Notes: generated by a model not told the origin, from the letters alone. A DNA stretch of 64,000 nucleotides from an uncultured Actinomycetota bacterium (GCA_963733635.1 CAVTEH010000003.1:352574-416573), one strand, 5' to 3'; numbered from the stretch's first letter, positions 9,822 through 63,641 are shown. A program made the numbers and translations.

Positions 9822-11925
9822 CTACACGTGATCGCGCGGGATGGAGCGGTCCCACTTTCGCTCGAAGACGAGGTCGGAACCTTCGAAGGCCTCCACGGTA
9901 TCGAGCAGCCGGAACGCATCCCGGTCGGCAGTCATCACGCTCCGCGTTCTTACCGCGACCTTCCAGCCACCGCGCTCGAGCCCCAGATCCCGGTCGCACT
10001 CGACTCGGGCAGACAGTGGGTCTCCCTCGCGGATGCTGAACCGGTCGCGGGTGCGCTCGGTGATTTCGAGGCCGTCCGGCAGCCGGTACCGCTGATCGCC
10101 CTCGGGATCCATGGACAGGGTGTAGTGGTGTGAGTCTGGTTCGTGTTCGATCTTGCGGAAAGGTTCCGTGGAATCGACTTCGTGGATCTCCAGCCGTGGT
10201 GGCGATTTCGGCGGCCCGAACTCCGGTACGAGCGGCGCATCACGTGTCTCTGGTGAACGCACCGGCAGGTCGATCCAGGACCCTTCACCGGCAACGAGCG
10301 TCAGCTCGACCGGATCGGGTGACGGCCAGAGCCACGGCCAATAGGTGCTCGAAGATCGCGAGCCGGATCCGGTCGCCGGAGGGCACGGCCTGGCCGAGGA
10401 CATCCAGCTCGAGCTCCACCTCGTAGCGCACCCCAGGCTCGAGCGCTTGCGGGCGTTCGTGCCCGTCCCGGTGAGTGAGGTTGAGCGCTCCCCGACTGAT
10501 CAAAGTCGAGGACCCGTCGGACGCGACGCGACATAACCGGGCGGCCACGAGTGCGAGCGGACGGTCGACAGCGAAGCTGAGGTGCAGCCTGGGATGCCCG
10601 AGCAACTCGACCCTGTCGTCCAGCGGGGCGGTATCGAACGTGAGGCAGAGCGCGTCCTCCTCCCGTTGATCCGGCGGGAAGTCCGTGTCGCGTCCGTAGG
10701 GGCACCAGACGCCCGCGAGCAGCCCGTGCCGCTGCGATCCCGTGTGACGCAGCTCTCGAGGTTCGGATGACTCCTCTGACAAGTCCCCGTCGTTCCCGAG
10801 GTAGAGCCGATGGGCGGTTACCGACGGCGGTGGCCACGTCGGTTCAGACACCCACCGGCCGGGCCGATCGACGTGAAGCTCTTGCGCGCTCGCGGGCTCC
10901 TGGACCCACGCTCGAAGCAGAGGCTCGTCCTCGATGCCGTTCGGCTCGTCCTTCAGCCAGCGGTCCCACCAGCGGAGGGCCTCGCCGAGGAAATCGATCC
11001 GAGGCCCCGGCGCGCCGACGTGTGGCCACGCGTGAGACCACGGCCCGATGAGCCCCTTGCGGACATCGGGCAGCCCCGCGAGCGTCCGCGGGATCGCGTT
11101 CGTGTAGCCATCGGCCCATCCGCCGACCATGTAGACGGGGCACTCGATCGCGGAGAGATCCTCGCAGATGGAGCCGTGCTTCCAGTAGTCGTCGCGGCGT
11201 TGATGCGCGAGCCACTCGGTGATGAACGGTGGCGTCTCCTCGAGGCGGCGAAGCCACGTCTCCTTCCAGCCTTCCCCGACCGTCTCGGGGTCGGGAGGCA
11301 GCGCGTTGTAGGCCAGCATCACCGTCGCCCAGGGCAGGGAATCGCACGCCAGCACGCACCCCCCCTTGTAGTGGACGTCGTCGGCGTAGCGATCGTCGGT
11401 TGAGCACAGGCTGATGACCGCCTTCAACGCAGGCGCTCGCCGAGCCGCGATCTGCAGCCCGTTGAACCCGCCCCAGGAGATGCCGACCATGCCCACCGCT
11501 CCCGAGCACCACTGGGCAGCGGCGAGCCAAGCGATCACCTCCATGGCATCGTCGTGCTCCTGCGGTGTGTACTCACCGGTGATCACACCGTCGGAGTCAC
11601 CCGTTCCGCGGATGTCGACGCGCGCATAGGCATACCCGTGGCCGGCGAACCATGTGCCCAGGGCCTCATCACGCGGAGCCATGGAGTCGCCCTTGCGATA
11701 CGGCAGGTACTCCAGGATCGCGGGCACAGCCTTATCGGTGTCTGGGCGCCAGAGCCGAGAGGCGAGTCGCAACCCGTCGTCGAGGACGATCCACTCGTTG
11801 GGCGTGCGGGCCACCCCGAACGGGAACCGGTCCACGATCATCGTGCTCGCGCGCGTATTGGCCCCAGCCACCTCGGATCGCCCAGAACGGGTGCTCGTGC
11901 TCGCGACCGCGGAAGCGGTCTTCAC
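9822..11925 (-). CDS. CocE/NonD family hydrolase (S15 X-Pro dipeptidyl-peptidase-like), apparent 1-nt insertion near 10352
   Basis: 546-aa ORF with GISWGG nucleophile elbow and RVDIRGTGDSDG. The C-terminal beta-sandwich continues in the 193-aa ORF frame (SSTYWPWLWPSPDPVELTL...). The shift is consistent with an extra T in GCGATCTTCGAG. Confidence 0.75.
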
Positions 11926-12210
11926 CGCACCGTACCAGCGACGAAAGGCGCGGCGCCGTTCTTGTCAGACGGCGAGGTCTGGGGCACCATATGCGGTACG
12001 AGAGGAAGGAGGTGGTCCGACTTGCATGAACAGCTCGAGACCCTCGAGGTGACTGGCTGCTAGCCGTCCCTCGCGGAGGGACCACCCTCCGCCCGTTTGC
12101 CGGGCGACCGGCAGAATCCCAACCAGTTCACCGACCTCACGTGTTCCGGCTGGTCTACCGGACGAAGCCTCGTCAGAGGCCGAAGTGCTCGTGAGGTGAA
12201 GCGCAAGTCG

Positions 12211-12241
12211 AACGGGCCGGGCCCACAGGGTCCGGCCCGTT
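12211..12241. other. GC-rich hairpin (AACGGGCCGG-N11-CCGGCCCGTT) in the divergent region upstream of the Mo-hydroxylase operon
   Basis: Perfect 10-bp inverted repeat read directly. No T-tract follows, so not a canonical terminator. Confidence 0.3.
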
Positions 12242-12285
12242 CGCCGTTCTCAGGAAGGCGTGGGTAAGCTCGGCGGGAGAGCGCT

Positions 12286-13141
12286 GTGCCCGAGGGAGCG
12301 ATGCCCGTGGACTACCTGGTGCCGACCGATGTGGCCGCCGCCCTCGAGATGCGGGGCGCGGGTGGTGTGGTGTTGGCCGGGGGCACCGACCTGTATCCGC
12401 AGCACGTGGGACGCCCCATGCCGGACCCGATAGTCGACATCGGTGCGCTCACGGAGCTGCACGGCATCGAGCGAGACCGACGATGCGTATCGGATCGGCG
12501 CGCTCACGCGCTGGTCGGATGTGGCGGCCGCGTCGATGCCGGGTTGTTTCGACGGCCTGCGGGCCGCGGCACTCCAGGTCGGTGGGGTCCAGGTCCAGAA
12601 CGCCGGCACGGTCGGTGGCAACCTGTGCAACGCCTCGCCGGCAGCCGACAGCATCCCCCCGCTGCTGACCCTGGATGCCTCGGTGGAGCTCAGGTCGGCG
12701 TCCGGCCGCCGGGTCCTGCCCCTCGAGGCCTTCCTCACCGGGTACCGGCAGACGGCGCTTGCGCCCGACGAGCTGTTGACCGCGGTGCTGATCCCTCGTG
12801 ACGCCGAGGACGCACGATCGGTGTTCGGAAAGCTCGGGCTCCGCCGCTATCTCGTGATCTCGGTCGTGATGGTGGCGGTCCTGGTCGCGGCCGACGCGGA
12901 CGGCCTCATCACCGACGCGCGGGTGGCGGTCGGTGCGTGCTCACCGGTGGCGCAGCGGCTGCGATCGCTGGAGTCGGCGCTCCTGGGCCGCTCGACGCAT
13001 GCGCTCGACCCCGCGACGATCGGCGGTCATCTCGATGCGCTGACCCCCATCGACGATGTCCGCGCCACGGCCGACTATCGGCGCCGGTCCGCGTCGATCC
13101 TGGTGAGCCGGGCGCTCGCGAGCTGTGGTGACGACCGATGA
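12286..13141 (+). CDS. Molybdenum hydroxylase FAD-binding medium subunit (CoxM/XdhB-like), frameshift about 12475
   Basis: N-terminal ORF VVLAGGTDLYPQ then second frame YRIGALTRWSDV...GTVGGNLCNASPAADSIPPLL. The two frames overlap at ELHGIER/TDDAYRIG. Confidence 0.75.
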
Positions 13142-13630
13142 GCACGGTCACCTTCACGGTGAACGGATCGTCCACCCAGGTGGACCGATCGGCGCGGCGG
13201 CTCAGCGACGTGCTCCGCGACCACCTGGCGCTCACCGCCACCAAGGTGGGATGCGACGCGGGCGACTGTGGAGCATGCACGGTGCTCCTGGACGGCGAAC
13301 CGGTGACCGCGTGCATGACGTCGGTCGGGCGCCTCGAAGGTCGGCAGGTGGAAACCCTCGAGGGCCTCCACGAAAGCGGAGAGGCCACGCCGTTGCAGGG
13401 CGCCTTCCTCGCGCACGGCGCCGCGCAGTGCGGCATCTGCACGCCCGGCATGCTGGTGTCGGCGGCGGCGCTCCTGCGAGCCACATCCACGCCCACCGAG
13501 CAGCAGGTCATGGACGCCCTCGGGGGCGTGCTGTGCCGCTGCACCGGCTACCGCAAGATCGTCGCCGCGGTCATGGCCGCGCAAGTGGGCGCCACGGAGC
13601 ACCGCGCCGTCGCCGCCGCCGGTCGGCAAG
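13138..13630 (+). CDS. Molybdenum hydroxylase [2Fe-2S] small subunit (CoxS/XdhC-type ferredoxin subunit)
   Basis: GCDAGDCGACTVLLDG and AQCGICTPGM...LCRCTGYRKIV motifs. The ORF runs on out of frame (Arg-rich tail), so the stop is likely lost by an indel. The large subunit begins at 13634 in another frame. Confidence 0.8.
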
Positions 13631-13633
13631 GCG

Positions 13634-15884
13634 GTGGGTCACCGCGCCCAGCGGGTCGACGGCCAACCCAAGGTCAACGGCACCGACGTGTTCGGCGCCG
13701 ACGAGGCGCCCGAGGGAGCGCTCACGATCCGCATCGTCCGCTCTCCCCACCACCGGGCGAGCTTCCGGCTCGGCGACATCGACGCCTACGTCGCGGCGAC
13801 GCCCGGCGTCGAGGCGGTGCTGACCGCCGCCGACATCGATGGCAGCAACCGGTTCGGCGTGATCCCCGCCACGGCCGATCAGCCCGTGTTCGCCGAGGAA
13901 CACGTCCGTTTCCGGGGCGAAGCGGTGGCCATGATCGTGGGCGAACCCGCCCCGATGGCGGCGTTGGACCTTTCCACGTTCCCGGTGACGTGGCAGGAGT
14001 TGCCGCCGCTCATGTCCATCGATGAAGCACAAGCGCAGGACGCGCCCAGGATCCACGACGACGCGCGAGGGCAACATCCTCGTCCGTGGCAACGTGGCAC
14101 GCGGCGATCTCGACGACGCCTTCGCGGCGGCCCACCGTCGAGGTCGAGGGCGTGTTCGAGACCGGCTTCATCGAGCATGCCTACATCGAGCCGGAGGCCG
14201 GCTACGCCGAACGCATCGGCGACCGCGTCGAGGTGCAGGTGACGACGCAGTCCCCGCACATGGACCGGATCGAGCTGGAGCAGATCCTGGGACTGCCCGA
14301 AGGAGGCGTCCGCATCAAGCCGACCGCGGTCGGCGGCGGGTTCGGCAGCAAGCTCGACCTGTCGGTTCAGCCCTATCTGGCCATCGCCGCGTGGAAGCTC
14401 AACCGCCCCGTGCGCCTGACCTACACCCGCCCGGAGTCGATGATGTCGACCACCAAGCGGCATCCCTCCCGGTTGCGCGTACGCATCGGCGCGACCGGCG
14501 ACGGCAGGCTCACCGCCATGGACTTCACCGGCGAGTTCAACACCGGGGCGTACGCGTCGTGGGGGCCGACCGTGGCCAATCGCGTGCCGGTGCATGCGAG
14601 CGGGCCGTACGTCTACGACGCCTACCGCGCACGCACCGCCGCCGATCCACACGAACGGGCCGCCGTCGGGCGCGTTCCGAGGGTTCGGCGTGCCGCAGTC
14701 GACGATCGCGACGGAGGCGCTCTTCGACGAGCTCGCCGATGCGACCGACGTCGACCGGCTCGAGTTCCGCTACCGGAACGCGCTCACGGCGGGCGTGCCG
14801 ACGGTCACCGGGCAGGTGTTCGCCTCAGGCGTCGGGCTACCGCGAGTGTCTCGAGGCGCTCAGGCCGCACTGGGAGCGAGCCCGCGCCGACGCCGCCGCC
14901 GCGAACGATGAGGCCGGCACGACCCGCCGCGGCGTCGGCCTCGCCGGCATGTGGTACGGGTGCGGCAACACCGCCATGGCCAACCCGTCGACGATCAAGG
15001 TCGGGCCTCCGCCGCGACGGCCGCGTCGCGCTGTACCAGGGCGCGGTCGACATGGGCCAGGGCGCCAACACCGTCATGACGCAGATCTGCGCCGACGCGC
15101 TGGGCATCGACATGTCGCGCATCGTCGACGCTCGGCGCCGACACCGACACCACGCCCGACGCCGGCAAGAGTTCCGCGTCGCGCCAGACGTTCATCTCGG
15201 GCAACGCGACCTTCCTGGCCTCGACCGCCCTCCGCGAACGGCTGCTGCTGCTCGCGGGCGCCTCCGATGAGGCCCATCTGGAGCTCGACGACCACCACCT
15301 GGTCGTGCACGATCGCGGCGAGGCGACCAGGGTGGACCTTGCAGCATTGGACGCCGACGAGGACGACCTCGTCGTCCGTCACCAGCGCCACCTACGACCC
15401 GCCGACGACCGCCCTGGACGCCGACGGTCAGGGCGAGCCTTACGCACAGTTCGGCTACGGCGCGCACATGGCCGAGCTTCAGGTCGACATGGAGCTCGGC
15501 ACGGTGCAGCTCCGCCGGATCACGGCCGCGCACGACGTGGGACGCGCGGTGAACCCGACGCTCGTCGAGGGCCAGATCGAGGGCGGCGTCGCCCAGGGCA
15601 TCGGCATGGCGTTGATGGAGGAGTACGTCCCGGGCCGCAACGAGAACCTGCACGACTACCTGATCCCCACGATCGGCGACGTGCCCGAGGTCGTGAGCAT
15701 CCTGGTCGAATCCGGCGACCCGGCCGGTCCCTACGGCGCGAAGGGGATCGGTGAGCACTCGCTGATCCCCACCGCCCCGGCCATCCTGAACGCGATCCGT
15801 GACGCGGTGGGCGCCGGGGTGCGCCATCTGCCCGCCACGCCCGACCGCGTGCTCGCCGCGATCGAGCAAGGCCGTGCGCGATGA
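13634..15884 (+). CDS. Molybdenum hydroxylase large (MoCo-binding) subunit (CoxL/XdhA-like), at least 7 apparent frameshifts
   Basis: GTG start VGHRAQRVDGQPKVNG. Native segments alternate across all three frames, for example GNILVRGNVARGDLDDAFAAA, EVQVTTQSPHMDRIE...AVGGGFGSKL, GAFRGFGVPQSTIATE, MGQGANTVMTQICAD, GGVAQGIGMALMEEY...GAKGIGEHSLIPTAPAILNAIRDA. Confidence 0.8.
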
Positions 15885-18180: not shown

Positions 18181-18189
18181 GCGACGAGC

Positions 18190-22290: not shown

Positions 22291-23043
22291 CTAGGCGCTC
22301 TTCGTGGACGGCCCGCCCAGGTAGGCCTGGATCACAGCCGGGTCCTCCGCGATCCGACGCGGCGGCCCGACCGCGATCGTGCGCCCCTGGTCCAGGACCT
22401 GGATGCGGTCGCAGAGCTTCATGATGAGCCGAAGGTCGTGGTCGACGATGACGACGGCGCATCCGAGCGACGACCCTGATCCTGCGGATGTTCGCGAGCA
22501 GCTCGTCGGACTCCGATCTCGTTCATGCCGGCGGCGGGCTCGTCGAGCAGGATCAGCTTCGGACGGCGCACCACCGCTCGCGCGATCTCGAGCCGTCGCT
22601 GCATGCCGTAGGGCAGGTTCACGGCCTTCTCCCGCTGGACCATGCCGTGAGGCTGAACCACTCGAGCACCTCGTCGACCGAGGCCTCGTCCGCTGCCGGA
22701 CAGGGCTCGCGGCCTCGACGTTCTCGCGGACCGTAAGCTGGGCGAACAGCCGGATGTTCTGGAAGGTGCGCGAGAGGCCGAGCGCCGCGATCCGGTGGGG
22801 CTTGAGCCCGGCGATCTCGCCGCCCTTCGAAGCGCACCGTCCCCTCGGTCGGCGGGTAGACGCCCGAGATCACGTTCAGCAAGCGTGGTCTTGCCCGAGC
22901 CGTTCGGGCCGATCAGCCCCAGGATCTCGTCCTGGCGAACCTCGATGTCGACGCCGTCGAGCGCGGCGACACCCTCGAAACGCTTCGCGACCCTATCGCC
23001 CACCAGTACACGGGTGCCGCGGGGTCGCAACGGACGCGGCACC
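22291..23043 (-). CDS. livG: Branched-chain amino acid ABC transporter ATP-binding protein (LivG-like), frameshifted
   Basis: RFEGVAALDGVDIEVRQDEILGLIGPNGSGKTTLLNVISGVYPPTEGTVRFEG, LSGGQ-region, IILLDEPAAGMN, and C-terminus VIQAYLGG*, across frames. Confidence 0.65.
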
Positions 23044-24150
23044 ATCGTCGGGCCGATCGATCGACGCCGGCGGGAGACCAGTGCTCTCGAGCCGACCCGC
23101 CCGCCGGGCCGCCCGTGCCTCGGCGAGCCGCAGGCGTGAGCCGCCGCAGCAGGTCGTCGATCTCCCAACGATCGAAGATGCCCTCGGGTCGCACGATCAG
23201 CGTGACGATGATGAGCAACGCGATCACGAACTGCACCGTGCCGGTGATCTTGGGCAGCTCCCACGGGCCGATCGCGACGCCCTGCTCGACCCGCGCGAGG
23301 GTGTCGGTCAGGAACGTGACGATCGCCGCACCCGCCACCGCGCCGGTGAGCGACGTGCGCCCGCCGATCACCAGCATCGCGAGCAGGGCGAACGTGATCG
23401 CGAAGTAGAACTGGTTCGCGTTGAACGCGATCACGCTCTGGGCCCATAGCGATCCGGCTGCGCCCATCATCGCGGCGCTCAGCAGCCACACGCCGTAACG
23501 GGTCCTCACGACGTTCGTGCCGACCGACGCCGCCGAGAGCGGGTCCTCTCGCGTGGCGCGCAGGCGCAGGCCGGATCCGGACTCCTTGTAGAGGCGGCCG
23601 AGCACCACGAACGCCACCGCGGCGATCGCCGCCACGGTCAACGTCGTGCGCACCGGGACGCCGGCCAGGCCCAGGGATCCGCGGGTGTACGTCGTGGCGT
23701 TCTGGAAGAAGGTGTGCACGACGACGAGCAGCGCGAGCGTGGCCATCGCCATCGTCGACTCGGTCATGCGGATGATCGCCCCGCCGAAGACGGCGGCGAC
23801 GATCAACGCCACCACGGCGGACAGGACGACGGCGACCGGGAGGCCGAGGTCGGTGTTCGCGAGCACGGTCGGCAGCTCCGGGAACTGCGCCGCCTTCACG
23901 GTGCTCGGGATCGTCACCAGCGCCGTCGCGTACGCGCCGATCCCCATGAAAGCGACGTGGCCGAACGAGACGATGCCGCTGTTGCCGATGAACGTCTGGA
24001 GCGAGACGACCAAGCATCACGTTCACGAGGAACACGACGTAGGTGCGGCTCGAGGACGACGAGCCGAACGCCTGCACGAGCAGCATGCCGCCCGCGAGCA
24101 GCGCGCCGATCACGGCGCATCCCCACAGCGCCGGTCGCAGTCGGCCCGCG
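23040..24150 (-). CDS. livM: Branched-chain amino acid ABC transporter permease (LivM-like), frameshift near N-terminus
   Basis: VVSLQTFIGNSGIVSFGHVAFMGIGAYATALVT...NANQFYFAITFALLAMLVIGGRTSLTGAVAGAAIV...IVRPEGIF; N-terminal helix in another frame. Confidence 0.65.
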
Positions 24151-24160
24151 GGGATCACGA

Positions 24161-25054
24161 TCACACAGCCTCTGCCCGCTGGCCGAACAGCCCCTGCGGT
24201 CGGACGTACAGGACCGCGACGACGATCAGCAGCGAGGCCGCCTGCGCGTAGGGCAGGAGCGAGCCCGGCAGCAGGGCCTGCAGGAACACCTCGAGCGTTC
24301 CGAGGAAGAAGCCGCCGATCACCGCTCCTCGCAGGTTGCCGAGCCCGCCGATCACCGACGCGATGAACGCCTGGATCACCGGGACGAAGCCGGTCGTGGG
24401 GTTCGACCGAGGTGGTGCGTACGATCCACAAGCACGCCGGCGATGCCGGCGAGCAGTCCCGAGATCAGGAACGCGAGCGAGATCACGCGGTTCGCGCGCA
24501 CGCCCATCAGTCGAGCGGTCGTGAAGTCCGCCGAGGCGGCGCGCATCGCGAGGCCCGACCGCGACCGGCGCATGAACGTCGTGAGCGCCACCAACGAGAT
24601 CGCGCCGATCCCCGCGGTGATGATGCTCAGCACGCTGATCCGCACCGGTCCCGAGCTGGATCGCCTCGTCGAAGAAAGCCGGCACCGGGATGCCGCGCGA
24701 GCGGACCGACACGGCCTGGCGGAACGCCCCTTGGATCAACTGCGCCACCGCGAATGAGGTGAAGAGCAGCGAGACGAAGCTCGCGTCGCGCAGCGGCCGG
24801 AACGCCACGAGCTCCATCAGGACCGACGAGATCCCCGCCGCCGCGACGCCGACCAGCGCGACGACGATGAACGGCGCGCCCGCGTACGTCGCGGCCAGCA
24901 TCGAGTACCCGGTGATCGTGACGAGCTCGCCGTAGGCGAAGTTCAGCATGCCGAGCACGCCATAGACCATCGACAGCCCGAGCGCGAGCAGGGCATAGAT
25001 GCTGCCCAGCGACAGCGCGTTCACGAGCTGCTGCACGAACTCCGACGGGCTCAC
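24161..25054 (-). CDS. livH: Branched-chain amino acid ABC transporter permease (LivH-like), internal compensating frameshifts
   Basis: MSPSEFVQQLVNALSLGSIYALLALGLSMVYGVLGMLNFAYGE...native C-terminus IQAFIASVIGGLGNLRGAVIGGFFLG; the middle about 70 aa is out of frame. Confidence 0.7.
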   Translation of the reverse strand: MSPSEFVQQLVNALSLGSIYALLALGLSMVYGVLGMLNFAYGELVTITGYSMLAATYAGAPFIVVALVGVAAAGISSVLMELVAFRPLRDASFVSLLFTSFAVAQLIQGAFRQAVSVRSRGIPVPAFFDEAIQLGTGADQRAEHHHRGDRRDLVGGAHDVHAPVAVGPRDARRLGGLHDRSTDGRAREPRDLARVPDLGTARRHRRRACGSYAPPRSNPTTGFVPVIQAFIASVIGGLGNLRGAVIGGFFLGTLEVFLQALLPGSLLPYAQAASLLIVVAVLYVRPQGLFGQRAEAV

Positions 25055-25061
25055 GCCATCC

Positions 25062-25835
25062 TCACCCCGCCTGGCTGATCCCCAGGTAGGAGCGCTCCAG
25101 CTCGCCCTCCACCAGCTGGTCGGTCGGGCCGGACGCGACGACGGCGCCGACAGACAGCACGTAGGCGCGATCGGCGATCTCCAGCGCGCGGTGTACGTTC
25201 TGCTCGACGAGCAACACGGTGACGCCCTCGTCGCGGAGCTCCTGGATCAACTCGAAGATCCGATCGACGAAGATCGGCGCGAGGCCGAGCGACGGTTCGT
25301 CGAGCAGGAGCATGCGTGGCCGCGACATCAACCCGCGTGCGATGGCCAGCTGCTGCTGCTCCCCGCCCGAGAGCGTCCCCGCCGTCTGCGCCGCACGCTC
25401 CCCCAGGATCGGGAAGCGCGCGAGCCAGCGGTCGGCGTCGGCGCGGAGCTCGTCGCGATCGCGGCGCACGATGCCCCCGATCGTGAGGTTCTCCTCGACG
25501 GTGAGATCGGCGAACACGTGCCGCCCCTCCGGGACCAGCGCGACGCCACGACGCACCACCGCCTCGGGCGTGAGCCCCGTCAGCGTCGCGCCGTCGAAGG
25601 TCGCGCGGCCGTGCTGAGGCTTGTGAGCGCCGGCGAGCGTGCGCAGCAACGTCGTCTTGCCCGCGCCGTTCGGGCCGAGGGCGGCGACGATCTCCCCGGG
25701 AGCGACCGTGAGCGAGACGTCGCGGATCGCGACGACCGCCCCATAGGCGACCGTCAGGCCGTCGACGGCGAGCAGCGGAGGGGCGGCCTCGGCGGTCGCG
25801 GTGGCCGGCCCCTCCTCGCTCGATCCCTCGGACAC
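25062..25835 (-). CDS. livF: Branched-chain amino acid ABC transporter ATP-binding protein (LivF-like)
   Basis: LLAVDGLTVAYGAVVAIRDVSLTVAPGEIVAALGPNGAGKTTLLRT...LSGGEQQQLAIARGLMSRPRMLLLDEPSLGLAP; GTG start with a short N-terminal extension. Confidence 0.8.
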   Translation of the reverse strand: MSEGSSEEGPATATAEAAPPLLAVDGLTVAYGAVVAIRDVSLTVAPGEIVAALGPNGAGKTTLLRTLAGAHKPQHGRATFDGATLTGLTPEAVVRRGVALVPEGRHVFADLTVEENLTIGGIVRRDRDELRADADRWLARFPILGERAAQTAGTLSGGEQQQLAIARGLMSRPRMLLLDEPSLGLAPIFVDRIFELIQELRDEGVTVLLVEQNVHRALEIADRAYVLSVGAVVASGPTDQLVEGELERSYLGISQAG

Positions 25836-46739: not shown

Positions 46740-47682
46740 ATGACCGGAACCGACACCGTGGTCCAGGTCGAAGGGCTCCGGATGCGCTACGGAACCGTCG
46801 ATGTGCTCGACGGGGTCGCGTTCGGCGTGAGAGCCGGCGAGGTCGTCACGCTCCTGGGACCCAACGGCGCCGGCAAGACCACAACGATCGAGATCCTCGA
46901 AGGGTTCCGGGTGCGATCCGACGGTGAGGTCCGGTGCTCGGGGTCGATCCCGTCCAGGCCGACGAGGACTGGCGCGCCAGGGTCGGCGTCGTGCTGCAGT
47001 CCTGGCGCGATCATGCGCGCTGGTCGCCACGGGCCCTGCTCACTGACCTCGCGCCGCTACTACGAGCCGTACTCCGACGCCCGAGCGCGAGCGGCCCTAC
47101 GACGTCGAGGCGTTGATCGCGATGGTCGGGCTCGAGGCGCAGGCCGACCGGAAGATCCGCACGCTCTCGGGCGGGGAGCGCCGGCGGCTCGACGTCGCCG
47201 TCGGCATCGTGGGTCGGCCCGAGCTGCTGTTCCTGGACGAGCCGACCGCGGGGTTCGACCCGAAGGCCCGGCGGGAGTTCCACGCGCTGGTCCGAAGACT
47301 CGCCGACGAGGAAGGCACCACGATCCTGCTCACGACGCACGACCTCGATGAGGCCGAGCGCCTCGCCGATCGCATCCTGATCCTCGCAGGCGGCCGGATC
47401 GTGGCCGACGGGACCGCCGACGAGCTGGCCCGCTTGGTGACCCGCGACTCCCACGTTCGGTGGCGGCGCGACGGCGAGTCGTTCGAACGCTCGACGCCGG
47501 ACGCCGTCGGGTTCGTCCGCGACCTGCTGTCGTCGGCGCCGAACGGCGAGATCACCGACCTCGACGTGCGCCGGGCCACGCTCGAGGACACCTACCTCGC
47601 GATGGTGCAGCGGCATGAGAGCGGCGACACGAGCGAGGTCGCGACCGTGTTCGGGGGAGGAGACGACGGCGATGGATCCTAG
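46740..47682 (+). CDS. ABC transporter ATP-binding protein (ABC-2 exporter type), at least 3 frameshifts
   Basis: VEGLRMRYGTVDVLDGVAFGVRAGEVVTLLGPNGAGKTTTIEILEGF / LGVDPVQADEDWRARVGVVLQSW / LSGGERRRLDVAVGIVGRPELLFLDEPTAGFDP...TILLTTHDLDEAERLADRI. Confidence 0.7.
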
Positions 47683-50169: not shown

Positions 50170-50357
50170 CCAGCAACAAGTCGGGCGCTGCAGCGGGGGG
50201 CGGGGCGTTCTACGGCCTCGGCATCATCGGTGCCTTCGTGTACTACTGGCAGCACGCCGACACGTTCTGGGAGTACGTGCTCGCGTTCATCCAGGGCCTG
50301 TTCTGGCCGGGCTTCATGGTCTACGAGATCTTCGAGGCGCTCGCCGCCGGGAAGTGA
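50166..50357 (+). CDS. Small hydrophobic membrane protein (ATGA-coupled to the upstream gene)
   Basis: MTSNKSGAAAGGGAFYGLGIIGAFVYYWQHADTFWEYVLAFIQGLFWPGFMVYEIFEAL. Confidence 0.4.
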   Translation: MTSNKSGAAAGGGAFYGLGIIGAFVYYWQHADTFWEYVLAFIQGLFWPGFMVYEIFEALAAGK

Positions 50358-50377
50358 TGTAGCGGGCCACGACCGAC

Positions 50378-51517
50378 ATGGCGACATCCGTGCTCGTCCT
50401 CGGTGCTGGGTTCGGGGGCCTGGAGCTGTCCACTCGACTCTCGGAGTCGCTCGGCGACCAGGTCGACATCACCGTGATCGATCGGTGCGGACGCATTCGT
50501 GTTCGGCTACTCCAAGCTGGACGTGATGTTCGGCATGCGTGACTCCAGACGCCGTCCGTCTGCGTTACGCCGACATCACCACGCCGCACGTCCGGTTCCG
50601 TCAGGAAACCGTGACCGCGATCGATCCCGAGTCGCGCCGGGTCACGACCGACCTCGACACCTATACGGCCGACGTGGTGGTCGTGGCGCTCGGTGCCGAC
50701 TACGACCTCGCCGCTACACCCGGTCTGGCGGAGGCCGGCAACGAGTTCTACTCGTTCGCCGGAGCCGAGGCGGTCGCGCGACGCGCTGCCGTCTCTTCGC
50801 TCGGGCACCGCGATCGTCGGCGTGTGCGGCACTCCGTTCAAGTGCCCGCCGGCGCCGAGCGAAGCCGCGATGCTCCTGGACGGGTACCTGCGCGAGCGGG
50901 GCGTCCGCGACGAGGTCCAGATCAAGGTCGTGATGCCGTTCGGCATGCCGATCCCGCCATCGCCCGCCACCTCGCAGGCGATCCTGGAGAAGTTCGCCGA
51001 GCGCGGCATCGAGTTCGTGTCCGATCGCAAGGTCGCGGCGCTCGACCCAGACACGCACGAAGCAGTGCTCGACGATGGCACCCGGCTCGCCTACGACCTG
51101 TTCCTCGGCATCCCCGTGCACCGCGCGCCGGCCGTGGTCGAGGCGTCGGGTATGACGGAGGACGGCTGGATCCCGGTGGAGCAAGGGACGCTCGCCACCC
51201 GATTCCCCGGCGTCTACGCCGTGGGCGACGTGACCAGCGTGGGCACACCGAAGGCGGGCGTGTTCGCAGAGGGCGCCGCCCGCGTGGTCGCCGACCAGCT
51301 GATCGCACGGATCCGCGGGCAGGCAGAGCCGCCCGACTACGACGGGACCGGCGCGTGCTGGATCGAGTTCGGCGACCACCAGGTCGGCCGCGTCGACGTG
51401 GACTTCTTCTCGACGCCCGGCCGCCCGACAGGGGCGTTCACGGCTCCCTCAGCGGAAACGGCCGCCGAGAAAGCCGAGTTCGGTGCCACCCGCCGAGCCC
51501 GCTGGTTCGGTCACTGA
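50378..51517 (+). CDS. NAD(P)/FAD-dependent oxidoreductase of the sulfide:quinone-oxidoreductase-like family, at least 2 frameshifts
   Basis: MATSVLVLGAGFGGLELSTRLSESLGDQVDITVIDR / SDAFVFGYSKLDVMFG / VGVCGTPFKCPPAPSEAAMLLDGYLRERGVRDEVQIKVV...VYAVGDVTSVGTPKAGVFAEGAARVVAD. Confidence 0.65.
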
Positions 51518-51895
51518 CGCGTCGTTCCCGGGCGAGTCCGACCCTTCGGGTGCGCTTCGAAGGTCGCGCGCAGTCGTTTGGGCGCCCGCTCGCGCCAGGA
51601 GTCGGTGAGCAGCTCGCGCAGCTCCTCGACGCCGACCTCGGCGTAGCGCACGAGCACCATCGCGTACCCGTCGTAGTGGGAGCGTCGTGAAGAACTTCCG
51701 CGCGATCCGAGGCCAGGAGCGCCTCCTTCTCCTCGAAACCGTCGACGAGCACCGTGATGCTCTCGCCGTCATCGCGCACGTAGCAGAAGCCCTTCTTGCG
51801 CACGCGGAACGAGGGCAGAGCCGCCATACGAGGGGTGCTCGTCGGTCTCGGGAAGCGAGAGCGCGATCCGGCGCACATCGTCCACGGTCGCCATG
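51511..51895 (-). CDS. MmcQ/YjbR-family protein, 2 frameshifts
   Basis: Own translation in three frames: MATVDDVRRIALSLPETDEHPSYG / AALPSFRVRKKGFCYVRDDGESITVLVD...EVLHDAP / HYDGYAMVLVRYAEVGVEELRELLTDSWRERAPKRL. Confidence 0.5.
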
Positions 51896-51959
51896 GCCGG
51901 TGGCATCCTCGCACGGCAGATCCGTTCCGGGATCTCGTCCAGATGTGACGTGCGTCACA

Positions 51960-53107
51960 GACGAGAGGCGGCGGCCGGCCATAGGTTCGAACACATGTTC
52001 GAGACAAGGAACTCGTCAGGGCGCTCGACGACGCGAACGCGCGTCGTGGCCCGTGCCAGCGCCGCCAACTGTCGCTGATCGCCCAGGTCGATCGCACCAA
52101 GGCCTGGCGCGGCTCGGGCGCGCGAGATCTCGCGCACTGGCTGTCGATGCGATACGGCATCTCCCACTGGAAGGCGCTGCCGATGGATCGCGGCGGCGCA
52201 TGCCTTGGAAGGGCTGCCTCACGCTCGCCGACGCGTTCACGGCCGGGCGACTGGGGTGGACAAGGTCGTAGAACTGTGCCGGTTCGCCGCGCCGGAGACC
52301 GAGGAAGGACTGGTCACTGGGCCGAACGGCGTCTCGTGTACCCCGTTCGGCGTCAGGGCGACATCGGGGTCCGCGCGTCGGCGGACCAGGTCGTCGAGGC
52401 CGAGGAGCGCCCGAAGCCTGTCGTGGTGGCTCTCGACGAAGGTCGTCGGGTCGGGCTAGAGGCGGAGCTCCCGGCAGCCCAAGGGGCGGTGGTGATCCGC
52501 GCGATCGAGCGCATGGCGGAACGAGTGTCCCCAGATGCCCGGCGAGAAGCCTCCGACCTCCGCCCCAGAGCGGCGTGCGGATGCGCTCGTGGCCATCTGC
52601 TCTGCTCGGATCGCCGCCGATACCGATCCCGATCGGGCGACCGTCGTGGTCCACGCACAGGTCGACGCCTTCGGGCAGCTCGCCGCATCCGAGTTGGAGG
52701 GTGGCGCACCGATCCATCGCCGGGCCGCCCAGCGCTTGCTCTGTGACTCCAGGACGCAGACCGTCATCGAGGACCCAGCCGGCACCGTGCTCGACCTCGG
52801 GCGCATGACGCGTGAGCCCTCGGCGGCCATGATGCGCCAGGTCCGGTACCGCGACCGTGGTTGCCGTTTCCCGGGGTGCGGCACCCGTTCGTTCACGCAG
52901 GCCCATCACATCGTGTGGTGGCGCCACGGCGGCCGAACCGACCTGAACAACCTGCTCCTGGTCTGCTCGTTCCACCATCGACTCGTCCACGAGCACGGCT
53001 GGTCCATCGAACGAGAAGCGGATGGCGCGATCGAGTGGCGTAAGCCCGACGGCGCCCGCTACCGGGCGGGCCCGTTGCCGGAGCCCGAACTCATCGCTCC
53101 CGGGTGA
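51960..53107 (+). pseudogene. DUF222 + HNH endonuclease protein (REP13E12-like element), many frameshifts
   Basis: N-region fragments AQVDRTKAWRGSGARDLAHWLSMRYGISHWKA, VDKVVELCRFAAPETEEGLV, ASADQVVEAEERPKPVVVALDEGRRVGLEAELPAAQGAVVIRAIERMAERV across frames. Intact C-terminal HNH VRYRDRGCRFPGCGTRSFTQAHHIVWWRHGGRTDLNNLLLVCSFHHRLVHEHGW. Confidence 0.6.
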
Positions 53108-53182
53108 CAGGATGACGTCGGACATCCGCTCGTTGCGCTGTCCTCCGGGGTCGTTCGCGCGTGGCGCGGTAGGCTAGACGAC

Positions 53183-53479
53183 ATGCCGGAGACCTTCGGG
53201 AAGCGTCAGCGTCAAGATGTCAAGGCCAAGAAGGCCGCCGCTCGAGAAGAGCGGCGTGTCAAGCGATCCCAGCGCAACGCCGATCGCGCCGCTGGCCTCG
53301 TCGAGCCGGGAACGCCCATCGAGCCCACCGAGCAGACGGTTCTCGGTCTCCCGGACGAAGCCGACCCGGAGTATGGGTCGAAGTCCCCCGCCTGCGTAAC
53401 GCGTTCTCGATCTACCGTCCTGTTTCGCCGGAGCCGCTCGACGCTGGGGTCTCGCACGCGCCGCTCACGACCGCGTTGA
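53183..53479 (+). CDS. Hypothetical basic small protein
   Basis: 98-aa ORF MPETFGKRQRQDVKAKKAAAREERRVKRSQRNADRAAG...; low complexity and uncertain. Confidence 0.25.
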   Translation: MPETFGKRQRQDVKAKKAAAREERRVKRSQRNADRAAGLVEPGTPIEPTEQTVLGLPDEADPEYGSKSPACVTRSRSTVLFRRSRSTLGSRTRRSRPR

Positions 53480-53961
53480 TGACGTCGGTGCCCGAGAGCA
53501 ACGCGGGCGTGGCCTCGGCGATCAACAACGCGATCTCCCGGGTGGGCTCCCCGCTCGTGACCGCGGTGATCTTCGTGGCGGTCGCCTCCAGCTTCTACGC
53601 CTCGATCTCGCGGCAGGTCCCCGAGGCGAACGTCGACTCGAGCGAGTTCCGCGCCCAGGTCTCCCCCTTGAACCAGCCCTCGCCCGACATGTCGCCGCAG
53701 ATCCGAGCCGCGGCCCGTTCGGCGTCGACGGACGCCTTCCACCTGGCCGTGCTCGTTTCGGTCGGCCTGCTCTTGGCCGGTGCCGCGATCAACGCGGTGG
53801 GGATCCGCAACCCTTCGGCGCGGGCGCCGCGGTGGCCCGGGTGGGGAAGTGCCACCGCCCGATGCGGCGGGTGCGGCGGCCCCGTCCGCGGCTCCTCCGA
53901 CGATTTCGTCGACGTGTCGGCGTCGGAACGAACGCCCACCGGCCCCGCTCGGGAGGCCTAG
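53476..53961 (+). pseudogene. C-terminal fragment of a DHA2-type MFS transporter (N-terminal about 300 aa absent)
   Basis: LMTSVPESNAGVASAINNAISRVGSPLVTAVIFVAV...AFHLAVLVSVGLLLAGAAINAVGI matches the last two TM helices of drug:H+ antiporters. Nothing upstream encodes the rest. Confidence 0.5.
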
Positions 53962-53994: not shown

Positions 53995-55578
53995 TCAGGC
54001 GTCCTGTCGAGGCACGATCTCGTAGATCTTGATCGGTCGGTTGATGCCCTTGAGGCTGATCTCATCGACCTGCCGGCCGTCGACGAAGTTGTCGACCGCC
54101 ACCATCGTTCGCTCCGTGACCAGGATCTGCCCCGCGGCCGCCTTGTCCGCCAAGCGGGATGCCAGGTTGACCTGGTTGCCGAGCACCGTGTAGTCGGTTC
54201 GTGCGGGCGAGCCGATGTCGCCCACGGTCACCCACCCCGTCGCGATACCGATGCCGATCTCGAAGACTTCGTCGTACCGGCGGAACCAATGGTCCTTGAG
54301 CGCTTGCAGCCGCTCGAGCATCTCGAGCCCCAAGCGCACGGCGCGCTCGGCGTGATCGTCCTGCGGGATCGGATCGCCGAAGAAGACCATGATGGCGTCG
54401 CCGACGTACTTGTCGAGCGTGCCGCCGTGCGCGAACACGAGGTCGGTCATCTCCGAGAAGTACTCGTTGAGCTCGTTGACGAGCTCTTCGGGCTCCATCC
54501 GCTCGGCCGCGGCCGTGAATCCCCGGATATCGGAGAAGAACGTCGTCAGGAACTTGCGCTCGATCCGAGCGTGACGTCCTGGGTTCCGGAGAGGATCGAG
54601 TCGGCGAGTCCCGGCGACAGGTAGCGCTTGAGACGCGTCGCCCGTTCGAGCTCGGCGACCTTGGTGTCCACCGTTTCCTGGAGATGCTCGTTGAGCGAAT
54701 GCAGGTCCTGGTAGAGCGTGGACAGCTGGCCCGTCGTGCGGTTGAGGTTCTTCGTGAGGTTGCCGAACTCGTCCCGGTTGGGCACGTCGACGTGCGTGTC
54801 GAAGTCACCATCTGCGATCTGCTCGAGCGCCTGCGTCGACGCGGCGCACCGGTCGGATCAGCGACCACGACAGGATGGCGCCAAGGGTCAGTGCGATCAG
54901 CAGGCTCACCCCCGAGAAGGTCGCCACGGCGATCGTCAGGAACCGACGGTGCGATGCGAACGAATCCGTCTCGGCGGCGACCAACTGCCTGCGACTCCGC
55001 GATCAGCGCGTTCAGGTCGTCTTCGAGCACGTGGGAGATCTCGTGCTCCTGCTCGATGTGGAGCCGCAGAGCCTCATCGACGCGGTCGGCGTCGAACAGG
55101 CTGGTCACCTCATCACTCGACCTCGGCGTACGTGGTGTTCACTCGCTCGACATGATCGAGCAGGGGCATCTCGCTCCCGGCGCCGTAGGTCCGCATCTCG
55201 GCGAGATCGTTGGAGAACTCCTGCTTCGCGTCGTAGATCTTCGGCGTGTAGCTGTGGATCGTCGAGCTTGAGCAAAGCCATCGCGCGGAAGTGGCTCTGC
55301 GAGGTGACCCCGTAGATCATGTCGCGGGCTTGACTCGCCTGCCGGTTGAGCGTGTTCAGCGTCTCGACCTGATCGCTCAGCCGGCTCAGCACGACGACGC
55401 TGAGCAGCCCCATCGACAGCAGCAGGAGTGCGATCAGCAGGAAGCCCGCCAAGCAGTTTCGTGTGCACGGTCGCCCGGATGCCGGCGACCCAATCGACGA
55501 ACGGCTTCAGGAACCGTGACAACGGTATGGAGTCGTTCGGTTCCGGACGCGCGTCTTCTGCCGCGCCGATCGACATGT
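53995..55578 (-). CDS. Membrane-anchored HAMP-domain class III adenylate cyclase, several frameshifts
   Basis: Cyclase C-half EELVNELNEYFSEMTDLVFAHGGTLDKYVGDAIMVFFG...VTVGDIGSPARTDYTVLGNQVNLASRL. HAMP-like NLTKNLNRTTGQLSTLYQDLHSLNE. N-terminal TM AGFLLIALLLLSMGLLSVVVL and MSIGAAEDARPEPNDSIPLSRFLKPFVDWVAG in other frames. Confidence 0.65.
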
Positions 55579-55707
55579 GTGTCCTCCCATCGCGATTCGC
55601 GAGATCAGTGCAGGTCAGGATGAACTCATCGCCATGCGATGGAAAGGTGGCGATGCTCATCATCTCCTCAGCAGCATCGTTCCGAGGTACGCTCGCGCCG
55701 TGTTCCG

Positions 55708-56879
55708 GATGGCCGTAGGGCATAGCGACGACGTCGACGCTCAGGACGCGGTCGAGGCCGTGGTGGCGCAGTGCGAAGAAGCCCTCGGCGGTGTGCGACC
55801 CAAGGCCGGGCTTCTCTTCTCCACCTACGACACGGATCCCAGACCCTGCATCGGCGGGCATCCGGAGCAGCATTCCCGGACATCGAGCTCGTCGGTTCGA
55901 CGTCCGTCGGGGAGATGTCCTCGGTGCTCGGCTTCCGCGATGACTCCATCACCTTGGCTCTGTTCGCCTCCGACACCGTCGACATCACCGCGGGGATGGG
56001 CGCGCGGCGTCTCGGCGGATGCCGGCGATCGCGGCGAGCCGATGCGGTCGGTGAGGCGGTGGGCAAGACCGACAAGGAGCCTCGTCTGTGCATCACGACG
56101 CCGTGCATCACGCGGCGATGACCCGTCGAGCCTGCTGCAGGAGATCCGTCGTGAGATCGGGCATGCCGTCCCGGTCCTGGGCGGAGGCTCGGGACCTCGG
56201 ACGGAGCCGGGTGAGCCGACTCAAGGCGTATCAGTTCTACAACGACTCGTGCTCCAGGACGCCGCACCCGTGCTGCTGTTCTCGGGCCCGCTCCGGTACG
56301 CGTTCGGTATCGACACGGGATGGCAGCCCGTTGGCCGCAAGGGCAGCGTGACCGACGCAGGCGGAGGAACGATCCGTGACGATCGACGATGAGCCCGCGC
56401 TCGCCTTCTTCGAGCATTACCTGGGCTCGGGAGCCAAGCCCACACCGGCGAACCCCTTGGCCGTCTTCGACAGCGATGCCGAGCAGACCCTTCTACCTTC
56501 GCGTCCCGTTGTCCTTCGACGCGGCGACGGGCGCCGTGAGGGTGGCGGGCGGCGTGACTCCCGGCGCGCTCGTGCAACTGACCGTCGCCGTCACCGACGA
56601 GATACTCGAGGGGACCAGGTCGGCGGTGCAGAAGGCGATCAAGGCCTATCCCGACGAGCCTCCAGCCCCCAGGCAGCGCTGATCTTCTCCTGCGCCATCC
56701 GCAAGCTGGTGCTCGGCACGCGGTCCGGGATCGAGCTGGACATCGCGCGCGACGAGCTCGGAGCCGGGATGCCGATCTGCGGGTTCTACTGCTTCGGCGA
56801 GATCGCCCCGCTCGAAGGTGGGTCGACCCGATTCCACAACGAGACGATCGTGGCGGTCATGATGGGCGAGGCCGCGTAG
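55708..56879 (+). CDS. FIST-domain sensor protein (FIST_N + FIST_C), frameshifted
   Basis: MAVGHSDDVDAQDAVEAVVAQCEEALGGVRPKAGLLFST / IELVGSTSVGEMSSVLGFRDDSITLALFASDTVDITAGMGA / ALIFSCAIRKLVLGTRSGIELDIARDELGAGMPICGFYCFGEIAPL. Confidence 0.6.
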
Positions 56880-61296: not shown

Positions 61297-61312
61297 GGGT
61301 GCGCTCCTCTCG

Positions 61313-62751
61313 TCACACGAGGTACTGCGACAGGCCGCGTTCGATGAACCGGCCGTGGCCCTTGCGACCGACGTAGGCGTCGTCCTCGATCACGACCGTG
61401 CCGCGGCTGAGAACGGTGTCGACCTTGCCGTCGACGACGAAGCCCTCGTACGCCGAGTAGTCCATGTTCATGTGGTGCTTGTCGTTGACGCCGATCGTCG
61501 TCGGCCGCGCCGGGTCCCACACGACGACGTCGGCATCGGCGCCCGGGGCGACGATGCCCTTGCGTGGATACATGCCGAACATGCGCGCCGGCGTGGTGCA
61601 GCAGGTCTCGACCCATCGCTCCAGGCTGAGCTGGCCGGTCACGACGCCCTGGTACAGCAGCTCCATGCGGTGCTCGACGCCGCCGATGCCGTTGGGGATC
61701 TTCGAGAAGTCGCCCAGGCCCAGCTCCTTCTGGTCCTTGAAGCAGAACGGGCAGTGGTCGGTGGAGACGACCGCCAGCTCGTTCATGCGCAGGCCCATCC
61801 ACAGGCTGTCCTGGTGGTGGTGCTCGTCGTTCGGCGAGCGCAGCGGGGTGGAGCAGACCCACTTCGCGCCCTCGAAACCGGGGCGCGCGAGCGTCTCCTC
61901 GAGCGTCAGCCACAGGTACTGCGGACAGGTCTCGGCGAACACGTTGCGGCCCGCGTGCCGCGCCGCGGCGATCTCCTCCAGCGCGTCGCCGGCCGACATG
62001 TGCACGACGTAGAGCGGCACGTTGCCGGCCACCTTGGCGAGCACGATCGCTCGATGGGTCGCTTCGGCCTCCAGATCGGGAGGGTCGCGTGTCGGCGTGG
62101 TAGCGCGGGTCGGTGTCGCCGCGCGCGAGCGACTGGGCCACCAGCACGTCGATCGCGATGCCGTTCTCGGCGTGCATCATCATCATCGCGCCGCACTCCG
62201 ACGCGGTCTGCATCGCCCGCAGGATCTGGCCGTCGTCGCTGTAGAACACGCCGGGGTAGGCCATGAACAGCTTGAAGCTCGTCACGCCCTCGTGCTCGGT
62301 GAGGTAGCGGATCGCCTTCAGCGACTCGTCGTCGACCCCGCCGATGATCTGGTGGAAGCCGTAGTCGATCGCGCACTCGCCGTCGGCCTTGCGGTGCCAT
62401 TCGGCGAGGCCTGCCTGCACGCTCTCGCCGGTGCGCTGCAGCGGCGAAGTCGACGATCGTGGTGACGCCGCCCCACGCCGCGGCGCGCGTGCCCGTCTCG
62501 AAGGTGTCGGAGGCGAACGTGCCCCCGAACGGCAGCTCCATGTGCGTGTGCACGTCGATGCCGCCCGGGATCACGTACTTGCCGCTGGCGTCGATCGTCG
62601 TGTCTCGTGCGTCGCGCGGCATCGGCGAAGAACCCCGGCGCGCCGACGGCCGCGATCGTCTCGCCGTCGATCAACACGTCGGCGGGCTCGACGCCGGTGG
62701 GCGAGATGACCTTCCCGTTCGTGATCAGCGTCCGTGCTCATCGCGGTCCGG
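61313..62751 (-). CDS. Dihydropyrimidinase / D-hydantoinase (cyclic amidohydrolase), frameshifted
   Basis: LIDGETIAAVGAP / VIPGGIDVHTHMELPFGGTFASDTFETGTRAAAWGGVTTIVDFA / MMMHAENG / native C-terminus VVHMSAGDALEEI...VSTDHCPFCFKDQKELG...VVWDPARP. Confidence 0.75.
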
Positions 62752-62796
62752 TCCTTCCCTGCTCGTGGGCTCGGCGGCTCGTCCCCGGCCTACTCC

Positions 62797-63641
62797 TCAT
62801 CGCGCGACGATGTCGTCGTAGGCGTCGGGCCGTCGGTCCCGGTAGAACGCCCAGCGGTCGCGGACCTCGCGGATCTTGTCCAGGTCCAGGTCGCGCACGA
62901 TCAGCTCGGGCTTGTGCGCGTCACCGACCTCGCCGACGAACTTGCCCTCGGGGTCCACGAAGTAGCTCTGCCCGTAGAAGTCGTTGTCGCCGAGCGGCTC
63001 GATGCCCACGCGGTTGATCGCGCCCACGTAGTACATGTTCGCGACGGCCGCGGCCGGCTGCTCGACCCGCCAGATGTACTCGCTGAGCCCGCGATGCGTG
63101 GCGGACGGATTGAACACGATCTCGGCGCCGCGCAGCCCCAGCATGCGCCAGCCCTCGGGGAAGTGGCGGTCGTAGCAGATGTAGACGCCCACCTTGCCCA
63201 CGGCGGTCTCGAAGATCGGGTACCCGCCGGTGCCGGGCGTGAAGTAGAACTTCTCCCAGAAGCCCTGCACCTGCGGGATGTGCTGCTTGCGGTACTTGCC
63301 CAGGTAGCTGCCGTCGGCGTCGATGACTGCCGCGGTGTTGAAGTACTGGCCGGCCTGCACGATCTCGTACATGGGCAGAACCATGACCATGCCCAGCTCC
63401 TTGGCGATGCTCTGGAACCGCTGCGTGGTAGGTCCGTCGGGGATGGGCTCGGTGTAGCTCGTAGTACTGGGCGTCCTGCACCTGGCAGAAGTACGGGCCC
63501 GTAGAACAGCTCCTGGAAGCAGATGACCTGCGCGCCCTGCGCGGCGGCCTCACGCGCCGCCTCCTCGTGCTTGTCGATCATCTTCTCCTGGTCGCCGGCC
63601 CAGTCGGTCTGCAGTAGCGCCGCTTTCACGGTGGTGGACAT
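62797..63641 (-). CDS. Nitrilase-superfamily amidase of the beta-ureidopropionase / N-carbamoyl-D-amino-acid hydrolase type, frameshifted
   Basis: MSTTVKAALLQTDWAGDQEKMIDKHEEAAREAAAQGAQVICFQELFYGP / VGVYICYDRHFPEGWRMLGLRGAEIVFNPSAT. Confidence 0.7.

Follow-up and report, generated by a model that had tools for sequence, protein, structure and literature searches.

The textbook consensus error of Nanopore assemblies is a deletion within a homopolymer. Bacterial pseudogenes are prone to slippage and, as Mira, Ochman and Moran reportedly described in 2001, biased towards deletions. The DNA analyzed here (called the window) is a stretch of 64,000 nucleotides from an uncultured Actinomycetota bacterium (GCA_963733635.1 CAVTEH010000003.1:352574-416573) in which about 30 genes, spread from 4.7 to 63.7 kb, contain a total of about 65-90 reading-frame breaks. 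We conclude, with a probability of about 0.93, that these breaks are spurious single bases introduced by the consensus or polishing step of a long-read metagenome assembly, and not the result of pseudogene formation, a mutator or recoding. This explanation is preferred because the events are, with few exceptions, insertions and are private to the window, the genes in which they lie are intact and under selection once the insertions are removed, the signature is associated with one sequencing platform, and the RpiR regulator gene appears intact in another assembly.

The breaks were located with a frame map, a codon-usage Viterbi analysis over all six frames with a high penalty for strand switches and with self-training. 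A frame switch with a stop codon within 30 nt was taken as an ordinary gene boundary and left out. Both the map and a plot of G+C content at third codon positions showed the coding signal moving from one frame to another on the same strand with no stop in between. The map gave 67 such same-strand switches in 64 kb (about 1.05 per kb), compared with 0-0.1 per kb, or 0-2 per 21 kb, in most of 75 related loci examined with the same detector. In direction, 51 switches were "+1" and 16 were "-1/+2", several of the latter being two adjacent insertions. The events were clustered, with an index of dispersion of 2.8 in 2-kb bins (p about 5e-5, or about one in 20,000 random placements). Dense stretches were found at 12.3-20 kb (about five per kb), 22.3-24.7 kb and 46.7-63.7 kb; isolated events lay outside them at 4749, 10353, 21839, 26518, 27575, about 35493 and about 44614. 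The G+C content was 66-72% throughout the window and is 69% for the genome. A switch at 24163 was rejected as a frameshift because in the alignment two genes meet there in the ordinary way, the stop codon of one overlapping the start codon of the next, and switches at 13135, 15877, 17283, 19984, 25066 and 25840 were rejected because a stop codon lies within 20 nt of each.

These results bear out the main observation of an earlier sequence-only reading of the window, that it holds dozens of clustered frameshifts. That reading had the affected region begin at 9822, which leaves out the broken mmuM gene at 4.4-5.4 kb that it also listed. The genes that it named as intact do not contain a frame switch in the map: these are the genes at 1778-4417 and 7834-9792 and the eis-like, GS-like, amidohydrolase-2 and gcvT-like genes. 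For the 7834-9792, GS-like and gcvT-like genes, whole gene products are on record for the source contig. This contig is 527,003 bp long, and eleven intact proteins encoded in the window are recorded as its products.

The nature of each event was determined from nucleotide alignments with a contig carrying an intact relative of one cluster (L081, contig_43554 of ENA ERZ25039591), with 24 syntenic relatives, with two further loci (L082, from JGI, and L083, from ENA) and with a short-read metagenome-assembled genome (MAG) locus, L025. All events that could be placed against these references amounted to 61 insertion events and four one-base deletions (94% insertions). In the coding DNA of 11976-19955, the comparison with L081 gave 41 insertion events, of which 38 added 1 nt, two added 2 nt and one added 4 nt. 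It also gave two 1-nt deletions; one of them compensates for the 4-nt insertion so that the frame is kept. The segment from 22291 to 30666 could be aligned from end to end with the 24 relatives at 73-83% identity. Its coding DNA between 22.4 and 27.6 kb contained 12 insertion events (sites in Table 1), all private to the window, and no window-private 1-nt deletion; tblastn junctions from up to 30 loci were net +1 in this part. At 60.3-63.7 kb, alignment with L082 and L083 gave seven 1-nt insertions and no deletions. Every event at 12.3-20 kb was missing in L081, and every event at 60.3-63.7 kb was missing in both L082 and L083. The single events elsewhere were an insertion in the CocE gene and deletions in the cupin and mmuM genes.

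The inserted bases were C (20), G (18), A (15) and T (4). In 77% of cases the inserted base differed from both of its neighbors, whereas 59% of random positions did so, and none lay in a run longer than 3. Thus the link to mononucleotide runs proposed in the sequence-only reading did not hold, and its description of the events as 1-nt indels was right as to their size but not as to a mixture of gains and losses. At individual junctions it agreed well with the alignments: the extra T that it saw in CocE near 10352 is an inserted base at 10353, T on the coding strand; the cupin event near 21849 is a 1-nt deletion, placed after 21839; the insertion near 35490 in a cyclase gene was placed at about 35493; and the enamidase event near 18780 is a G added to a G run at 18782. 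The G6 run that it gave at 43585-43590 is present in the sequence. Errors concentrated in homopolymers, the classical Nanopore signature, were not found here.

Several sources of the insertions were considered and rejected. Homopolymer slippage was rejected as the driver, since the insertions lie outside homopolymers. No 4-mer was significantly enriched at the insertion sites after correction for 240 tests, and a motif of the GATC or CGATCG type was rejected, the best 4-mer that includes the inserted base being CGAT (seven observed and 2.1 expected, p = 0.005 uncorrected). Merged alleles of single-nucleotide polymorphisms were rejected because the distance from an insertion to the nearest mismatch between the window and L081 was the same as for random positions; 20% of the insertions lay 3 nt or less from such a mismatch, and 20% were expected to do so.

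When the frames were stitched along the map, each gene gave a continuous frame, and full-length Pfam domains extended over the junctions. For example, the MoCoBD_2 match of the molybdenum (Mo)-hydroxylase rose to 249 bits, compared with 130 bits and only residues 179-283 of 283 in the raw open reading frame (ORF); the Peripla_BP_6 match of the LivJ-like protein covered 1-339 of 343 after stitching, compared with 1-128 of 343 in the raw ORF; and the EAL match was extended from 110-234 to 64-234 of 236. One raw ORF, 25062-27068, is a chimera that joins the N-terminal third of the binding protein and an ABC ATPase domain in a single frame. A search with the stitched Mo-hydroxylase led to an intact 912-aa protein (P0002), 97% identical, on L081. 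There the cluster consists of eight genes, all of them whole: those for proteins of 279, 912, 471, 288, 194 and 390 aa, an isochorismatase gene and a cupin gene. Window positions 11962-19955 are 95.7% identical to L081:8809-16775. A search with the stitched dihydropyrimidinase led to L082 and L083, and the genes for proteins of 280, 474 and 338 aa are whole in both.

After removal of the insertions, the codon alignment of six genes with L081 was continuous over 2,532 codons, with no stop codons. Values of pN/pS were 0.06-0.23 per gene, and the mismatches at codon positions 1, 2 and 3 numbered 43, 26 and 188, with 73% at the third position. The underlying genes are intact and under strong purifying selection, as anticipated by the sequence-only reading, which had noted the high conservation of the shifted segments. 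None of the features of pseudogenes was found: neither a raised dN/dS nor in-frame stops, neither deletions as frequent as insertions nor an enrichment at repeats or homopolymers. Because a 1.2-kb gene carries ten frameshifts with neither a nonsense codon nor loosened constraint, we conclude that these genes are not decaying.

One gene could be compared in an independent k-mer assembly. The GS-like gene of the window (28089-29462) encodes a 457-aa protein whose close relatives are only uncultured Actinomycetota MAGs; the best of them is 80% identical, and the Microflora Danica (MFD) project, with its long-read MAGs, accounts for many. The source is not a Mycobacterium. A Logan contig of 2,473 bp, from run ERR11571139, codes for an identical 457-aa protein. 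Upstream of it on that contig is an intact gene of 852 nt for a 283-aa HTH_6 plus SIS (RpiR) protein, which overlaps the GS-like gene by 4 nt. In the window the RpiR gene has this ATG (27240) and this stop (28092) as well but is 853 nt long, with the frame break at 27575. A search for the Logan-type RpiR protein with nine single-deletion variants did not give an exact match, and the best match in a homologue search was 81% identical.

The same signature was found in other assemblies. In the 8.4-kb alignment, private 1-nt insertions were present in four MFD Nanopore MAGs, L075 (11), L010 (9), L028 (5) and L033 (2), whereas 11 short-read MAGs had two in total. The detector, which does not require a reference, was run on loci of about 21 kb comprising 25 from MFD and 50 others (short-read MAGs, isolates and L081-L083). 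The 25 MFD loci gave 77 "+1" and 23 "-1/+2" switches; the 50 other loci gave 31 and 38, a symmetric background. A clear "+1" excess was found only in MFD MAGs, namely L055 (19 vs 2), L010 (11 vs 0), L075 (9 vs 2), L028 and L033. The insertions in the MFD loci were single, non-homopolymeric and patchy, like those of the window. In L055, insertion-type frameshifts reached 0.9 per kb and were patchy, for example at L055:17.7-21.2 kb. All five (L055, CAVPQP010000006.1; L010, CAVXYE010000011.1; L075, CAWHGC010000008.1; L028, CAWCPZ010000012.1; L033, CAWHQA010000019.1) are from public MAGs that serve as GTDB species representatives. The MFD MAGs were assembled by Flye from Nanopore reads alone and polished once with Medaka, without short reads, and their authors reported a reduced coding density in MAGs of lower coverage. 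In work by the same group, R10.4 consensus sequences became near-finished only when coverage reached about 40-fold (PMC9262707).

In the explanation that we favor, the assembly of the window very probably originated from long (Nanopore) reads and a pipeline of the Flye-plus-Medaka type. In stretches with poor support for the consensus, stray single bases would have been written in, up to about five per kb; each would shift the frame, and gene callers would then report fragments. The patchiness is most simply accounted for by stretches with such a poorly supported consensus, and the clustering itself would result either from locally low depth or from reads of a second, closely related sequence mapping there. 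The sequence-only reading had also preferred assembly indels to pseudogenes, and the restoration of intact, selected genes by removal of the insertions, the whole genes of the relatives and the platform association are all in accord with it.

Four points weigh against this explanation. That the contig is a Nanopore product is very probable from the signature of its relatives, which is indirect. The pure bias towards insertions outside homopolymers is unlike the textbook Nanopore error and, to our knowledge, has not been described in print; the match is an empirical one, in the MFD loci. L081 also has the style of a Flye contig, yet it is clean; therefore, the platform alone is not sufficient, and a local cause, either depth or a mixture of reads, has to be assumed. 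Finally, the RpiR comparison is a single case and was made from gene length, position and Pfam content. Flye/Medaka consensus may have a systematic bias towards insertions, hitherto undescribed, on metagenomic contigs of high G+C content and low depth.

Genuine and very recent decay, with a correct sequence and about 30 genes broken in the living organism by a mutator or by relaxed selection, appears very improbable. A recently silenced or acquired block could look much the same, with breaks clustered by region and some neighboring genes untouched, and the block at 12-20 kb has a history of its own, being 95.7% identical to L081 between flanks of 77-85%. Nevertheless, decay would have to produce 61 insertions and only four deletions outside repeats and homopolymers, and up to 10 frameshifts in a 1.2-kb gene, with no nonsense codons and with pN/pS values of 0.06-0.23 among the genes. 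It would also have to leave the same signature in unrelated species sequenced on one platform and, as far as gene structure indicates, an intact RpiR gene in an independent assembly. A mutator, which the sequence-only reading had offered as one cause of the clustering, is contradicted by the spectrum and by the signal of selection. More improbable still is that the extra bases are real and were added recently, as untemplated insertions, by error-prone repair or a terminal-transferase-like activity acting on patches of the chromosome. To biological recoding, in which real extra bases would be bypassed by programmed +1 frameshifting, transcriptional slippage or RNA editing, we give practically no credence: that the genes are otherwise perfectly conserved is the sole point in its favor, whereas the sites have no shared motif or slippery sequence, none is conserved in 24 or more relatives, they number up to five per kb, and the pattern is limited to the assemblies of one platform.

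A different kind of alternative is a mechanism within the artefact explanation, namely that the consensus was collapsed or is a chimera of two related sequences that occur together, either strains or a horizontally shared segment. We consider it possible but somewhat doubtful. Mixed or multiply mapping reads would degrade polishing only where a second copy exists, which would give clusters; the densest cluster, 12.5-19.9 kb, is the very block that is 93-99% identical to L081 between flanks of 77-85%; and microdiversity limits MAG recovery, according to the Microflora Danica paper. The insertions, however, are no nearer to mismatches with L081 than chance predicts (20% in both cases within 3 nt), no relative of more than 90% identity was found for the clusters at 22.3-24.7 kb and 46.7-63.7 kb, and a simple low read depth fits the data equally well. 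Of the possible causes of the clustering listed in the sequence-only reading, low coverage is plausible, and so is a duplicated segment or a shared one.

If the breaks are consensus errors, their biological weight is low, and the organism itself almost certainly has whole genes for the nicotinate-type Mo-hydroxylase and enamidase, the branched-chain transporter and pyrimidine catabolism. In the affected stretches, and likewise in other public long-read MAGs with the signature such as L055, L010 and L075, the called genes, the estimated completeness and the number of pseudogenes would be wrong, and searches of such records for genes in decay or for new short proteins would give misleading results. 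An insertion bias of Flye/Medaka, if real, would touch a measurable fraction of the entries in a large public catalogue of MAGs. The insertion-only, non-homopolymer and patchy pattern provides a useful diagnostic, and frame-aware correction or re-polishing should repair the affected sequences.

The affected genes and the positions of the events are given in Table 1. In the permease and ATPase stretch, the two parts are separated by a hypervariable linker (22986-23141) whose length differs in almost every relative. Compared with each relative, the linker of the window differs in length by 2 mod 3 (a net +2), which implies one or two further, unplaced inserted bases. The DUF222/HNH region is the least well resolved part of the window.

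Table 1. Genes of the window that contain frame breaks, with the position of each event and the evidence for it. Approximate positions are marked ~; domain matches are those of the stitched proteins, as residues of the model/model length.
Gene	Position	Strand	Events	Placed by	Stitched protein and remarks
mmuM-like homocysteine S-methyltransferase	4424..5445	-	one 1-nt deletion after 4749	alignment with L025 (80% identity), single window gap after 4749	S-methyl_trans 2-282/283
CocE / X-Pro dipeptidyl-peptidase (S15)	9825..11856	-	extra base at 10353	L081 alignment; tblastn junctions 10348-10364 net +1; frame map switch 10316	
Mo-hydroxylase FAD subunit	12292..13141	+	extra base at 12475	L081 alignment (99.3% identical)	FAD_binding_5 3-169/170 plus CO_deh_flav_C
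Fused FeS/Mo subunit, 912 aa in relatives	13138..15884	+	eight 1-nt insertions: 13599, 14063, 14131, 14642, 14833, 15002, 15127, 15373	L081 alignment	Fer2_2, Ald_Xan_dh_C, MoCoBD_1 1-244/244, MoCoBD_2 6-283/283, full length
HnrA-like, 471 aa intact in L081	15881..17304	+	insertions 15999 (AG), 16750, 16910, 16966, 17260, 17281, 17298	L081 alignment	pN/pS 0.06
AbpE/UPF0280-like, 288 aa intact in L081	17301..18180	+	insertions 17626, 17721, 17924, 17930, 18041, 18053 (CC), 18062, 18105, 18108; additional in-frame +4/-1 pair at 17494/17515	L081 alignment	
AA_synth, 194 aa intact in L081	18177..18775	+	insertions 18187, 18565, 18669, 18726, 18729; one deletion after 18625	L081 alignment	AA_synth 1-175/175
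Enamidase-like amidohydrolase, 390 aa intact in L081	18776..19990	+	ten 1-nt insertions: 18782, 18862, 18910, 18949, 19205, 19207, 19507, 19605, 19751, 19890	L081 alignment; tblastn junctions net +1 or +2	
Cupin, 128 aa intact in L081	21653..22035	+	1-nt deletion after 21839	85%-identity alignment; frame map -1/+2 switch at 21853	
Branched-chain amino-acid ABC permease + ATPase stretch	22315..24163	-	insertions 22470, 22516, 22642-3, 22700-1, 22819, 22881, 24010	multiple alignment, 24 relatives	BPD_transp_2, ABC_tran 1-136/137
LivH-like permease	24164..25066	-	insertions 24405, 24430, 24649	multiple alignment; tblastn junctions from 27-28 loci net +1 or +2	BPD_transp_2 2-265/269
LivJ-like binding protein	25841..27023	-	one insertion, 26518	multiple alignment; tblastn junctions net +1 in 64/65	
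RpiR regulator	27240..28092	+	one insertion, ~27575	multiple alignment	
Class III adenylate cyclase	34716..35939	+	one insertion, ~35493	frame map +1 at 35494; L082 alignment, low identity	Guanylate_cyc 7-180/183, spans junction
EAL-domain gene	44426..45776	+	one +1 switch, ~44614	frame map only	
ABC ATPase	46737..47652	+	switches ~46931, 47041, 47082	frame map	ABC_tran 1-137/137 over three junctions
SQR-like pyridine-nucleotide-disulphide oxidoreductase	50355..51508	+	+1 switches ~50388, 50480, 50546, 50778	frame map; tblastn junctions net +1	Pyr_redox_2 3-278/291
YjbR/MmcQ-like	51544..51942	-	switches ~51683, 51827	frame map	YjbR 1-87/88
DUF222/HNH region	52003..53811	+	~six switches (52197, 52354, 52561, 53134, 53373, others)	frame map only	DUF222 match partial
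HAMP adenylate cyclase	53995..55819	-	+1 switches ~54834, 54987, 55136, 55259, 55459	frame map; tblastn junctions net +1	HAMP match; 167-aa product called on source contig clusters with 399-aa cyclases
FIST-domain gene	55873..56876	+	~four or five switches (56180, 56246, 56356, 56489)	frame map	FIST and FIST_C matches
Luciferase-like monooxygenase, 338 aa in L082/L083	60284..61315	-	insertions 60663, 60840	L082 and L083 alignments	Bac_luciferase 15-314/314
Dihydropyrimidinase, 474 aa in L082/L083	61316..62731	-	insertions 62078, 62443, 62612	L082 and L083 alignments	Amidohydro_1 1-345/345
N-carbamoylase (CN_hydrolase), 280 aa in L082/L083	62803..63674	-	insertions 63458, 63494	L082 and L083 alignments	CN_hydrolase 1-255/256

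The Mo-hydroxylase cluster also differs from its surroundings in its relationship to L081. Identity over the 8-kb cluster declines from 99.3% in the FAD subunit gene to 92.8% in the enamidase gene, and identity to L081 is only 77-85% in the CocE, cupin and eis-like genes on either side. This pattern of identity suggests that the cluster was recently exchanged horizontally or recombined between the two lineages, or else that the assembly contains a chimeric join. The L081-like block coincides with the densest patch of insertions (12.5-19.9 kb). In gene content, 12292-20000 resembles a cluster for the degradation of nicotinate or another N-heterocycle, with a three-part Mo-hydroxylase, a 471-aa protein without a Pfam domain, AbpE_bact, AA_synth and an enamidase-like amidohydrolase; in L081, the isochorismatase-family and cupin genes come after the cluster.

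Two further features of the window were noted. Genes for class III adenylate/guanylate cyclases are unusually dense, with at least four in 64 kb (including 1778-4417, 7834-9792, 34716-35939 and 53995-55819), and the partner domains differ among them: a STAND NTPase plus TPR, an unidentified N-terminal region, a membrane region and HAMP. The relative L082 is likewise rich in cyclase genes. In addition, two genes, at 40800-41500 and 45050-45650, have in common a domain of about 200 aa (36% identity, E = 4e-28) with no Pfam match and with the conserved motifs GWRxW, CxCGIYA, WG..IEH..G and AYPARL.LVC..C. One gene has this domain by itself after an N-terminal leader; the other carries it as a fusion, after an EAL domain.

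Three known systems can be compared with the window. Like the pseudogene clusters of the Mycobacterium leprae type, it has many adjacent genes with frameshifts; however, it does not have the deletion bias, nonsense codons, rise in pN/pS or large deletions of those clusters, and its relatives are intact. Programmed frameshifting and slippage, as in prfB, dnaX and IS elements, also involve a 1-nt change of frame inside a coding sequence, but programmed sites are single, conserved and provided with a slippery motif, whereas those of the window are private, motif-free and present by the dozen. The third system is the indel artefact of long-read consensus sequences. The literature on it stresses errors in homopolymer length, and the window has non-homopolymer insertions in patches on the scale of kilobases; yet the two are alike in that single-base indels fragment the gene calls of intact genes, and do so more severely at lower coverage.

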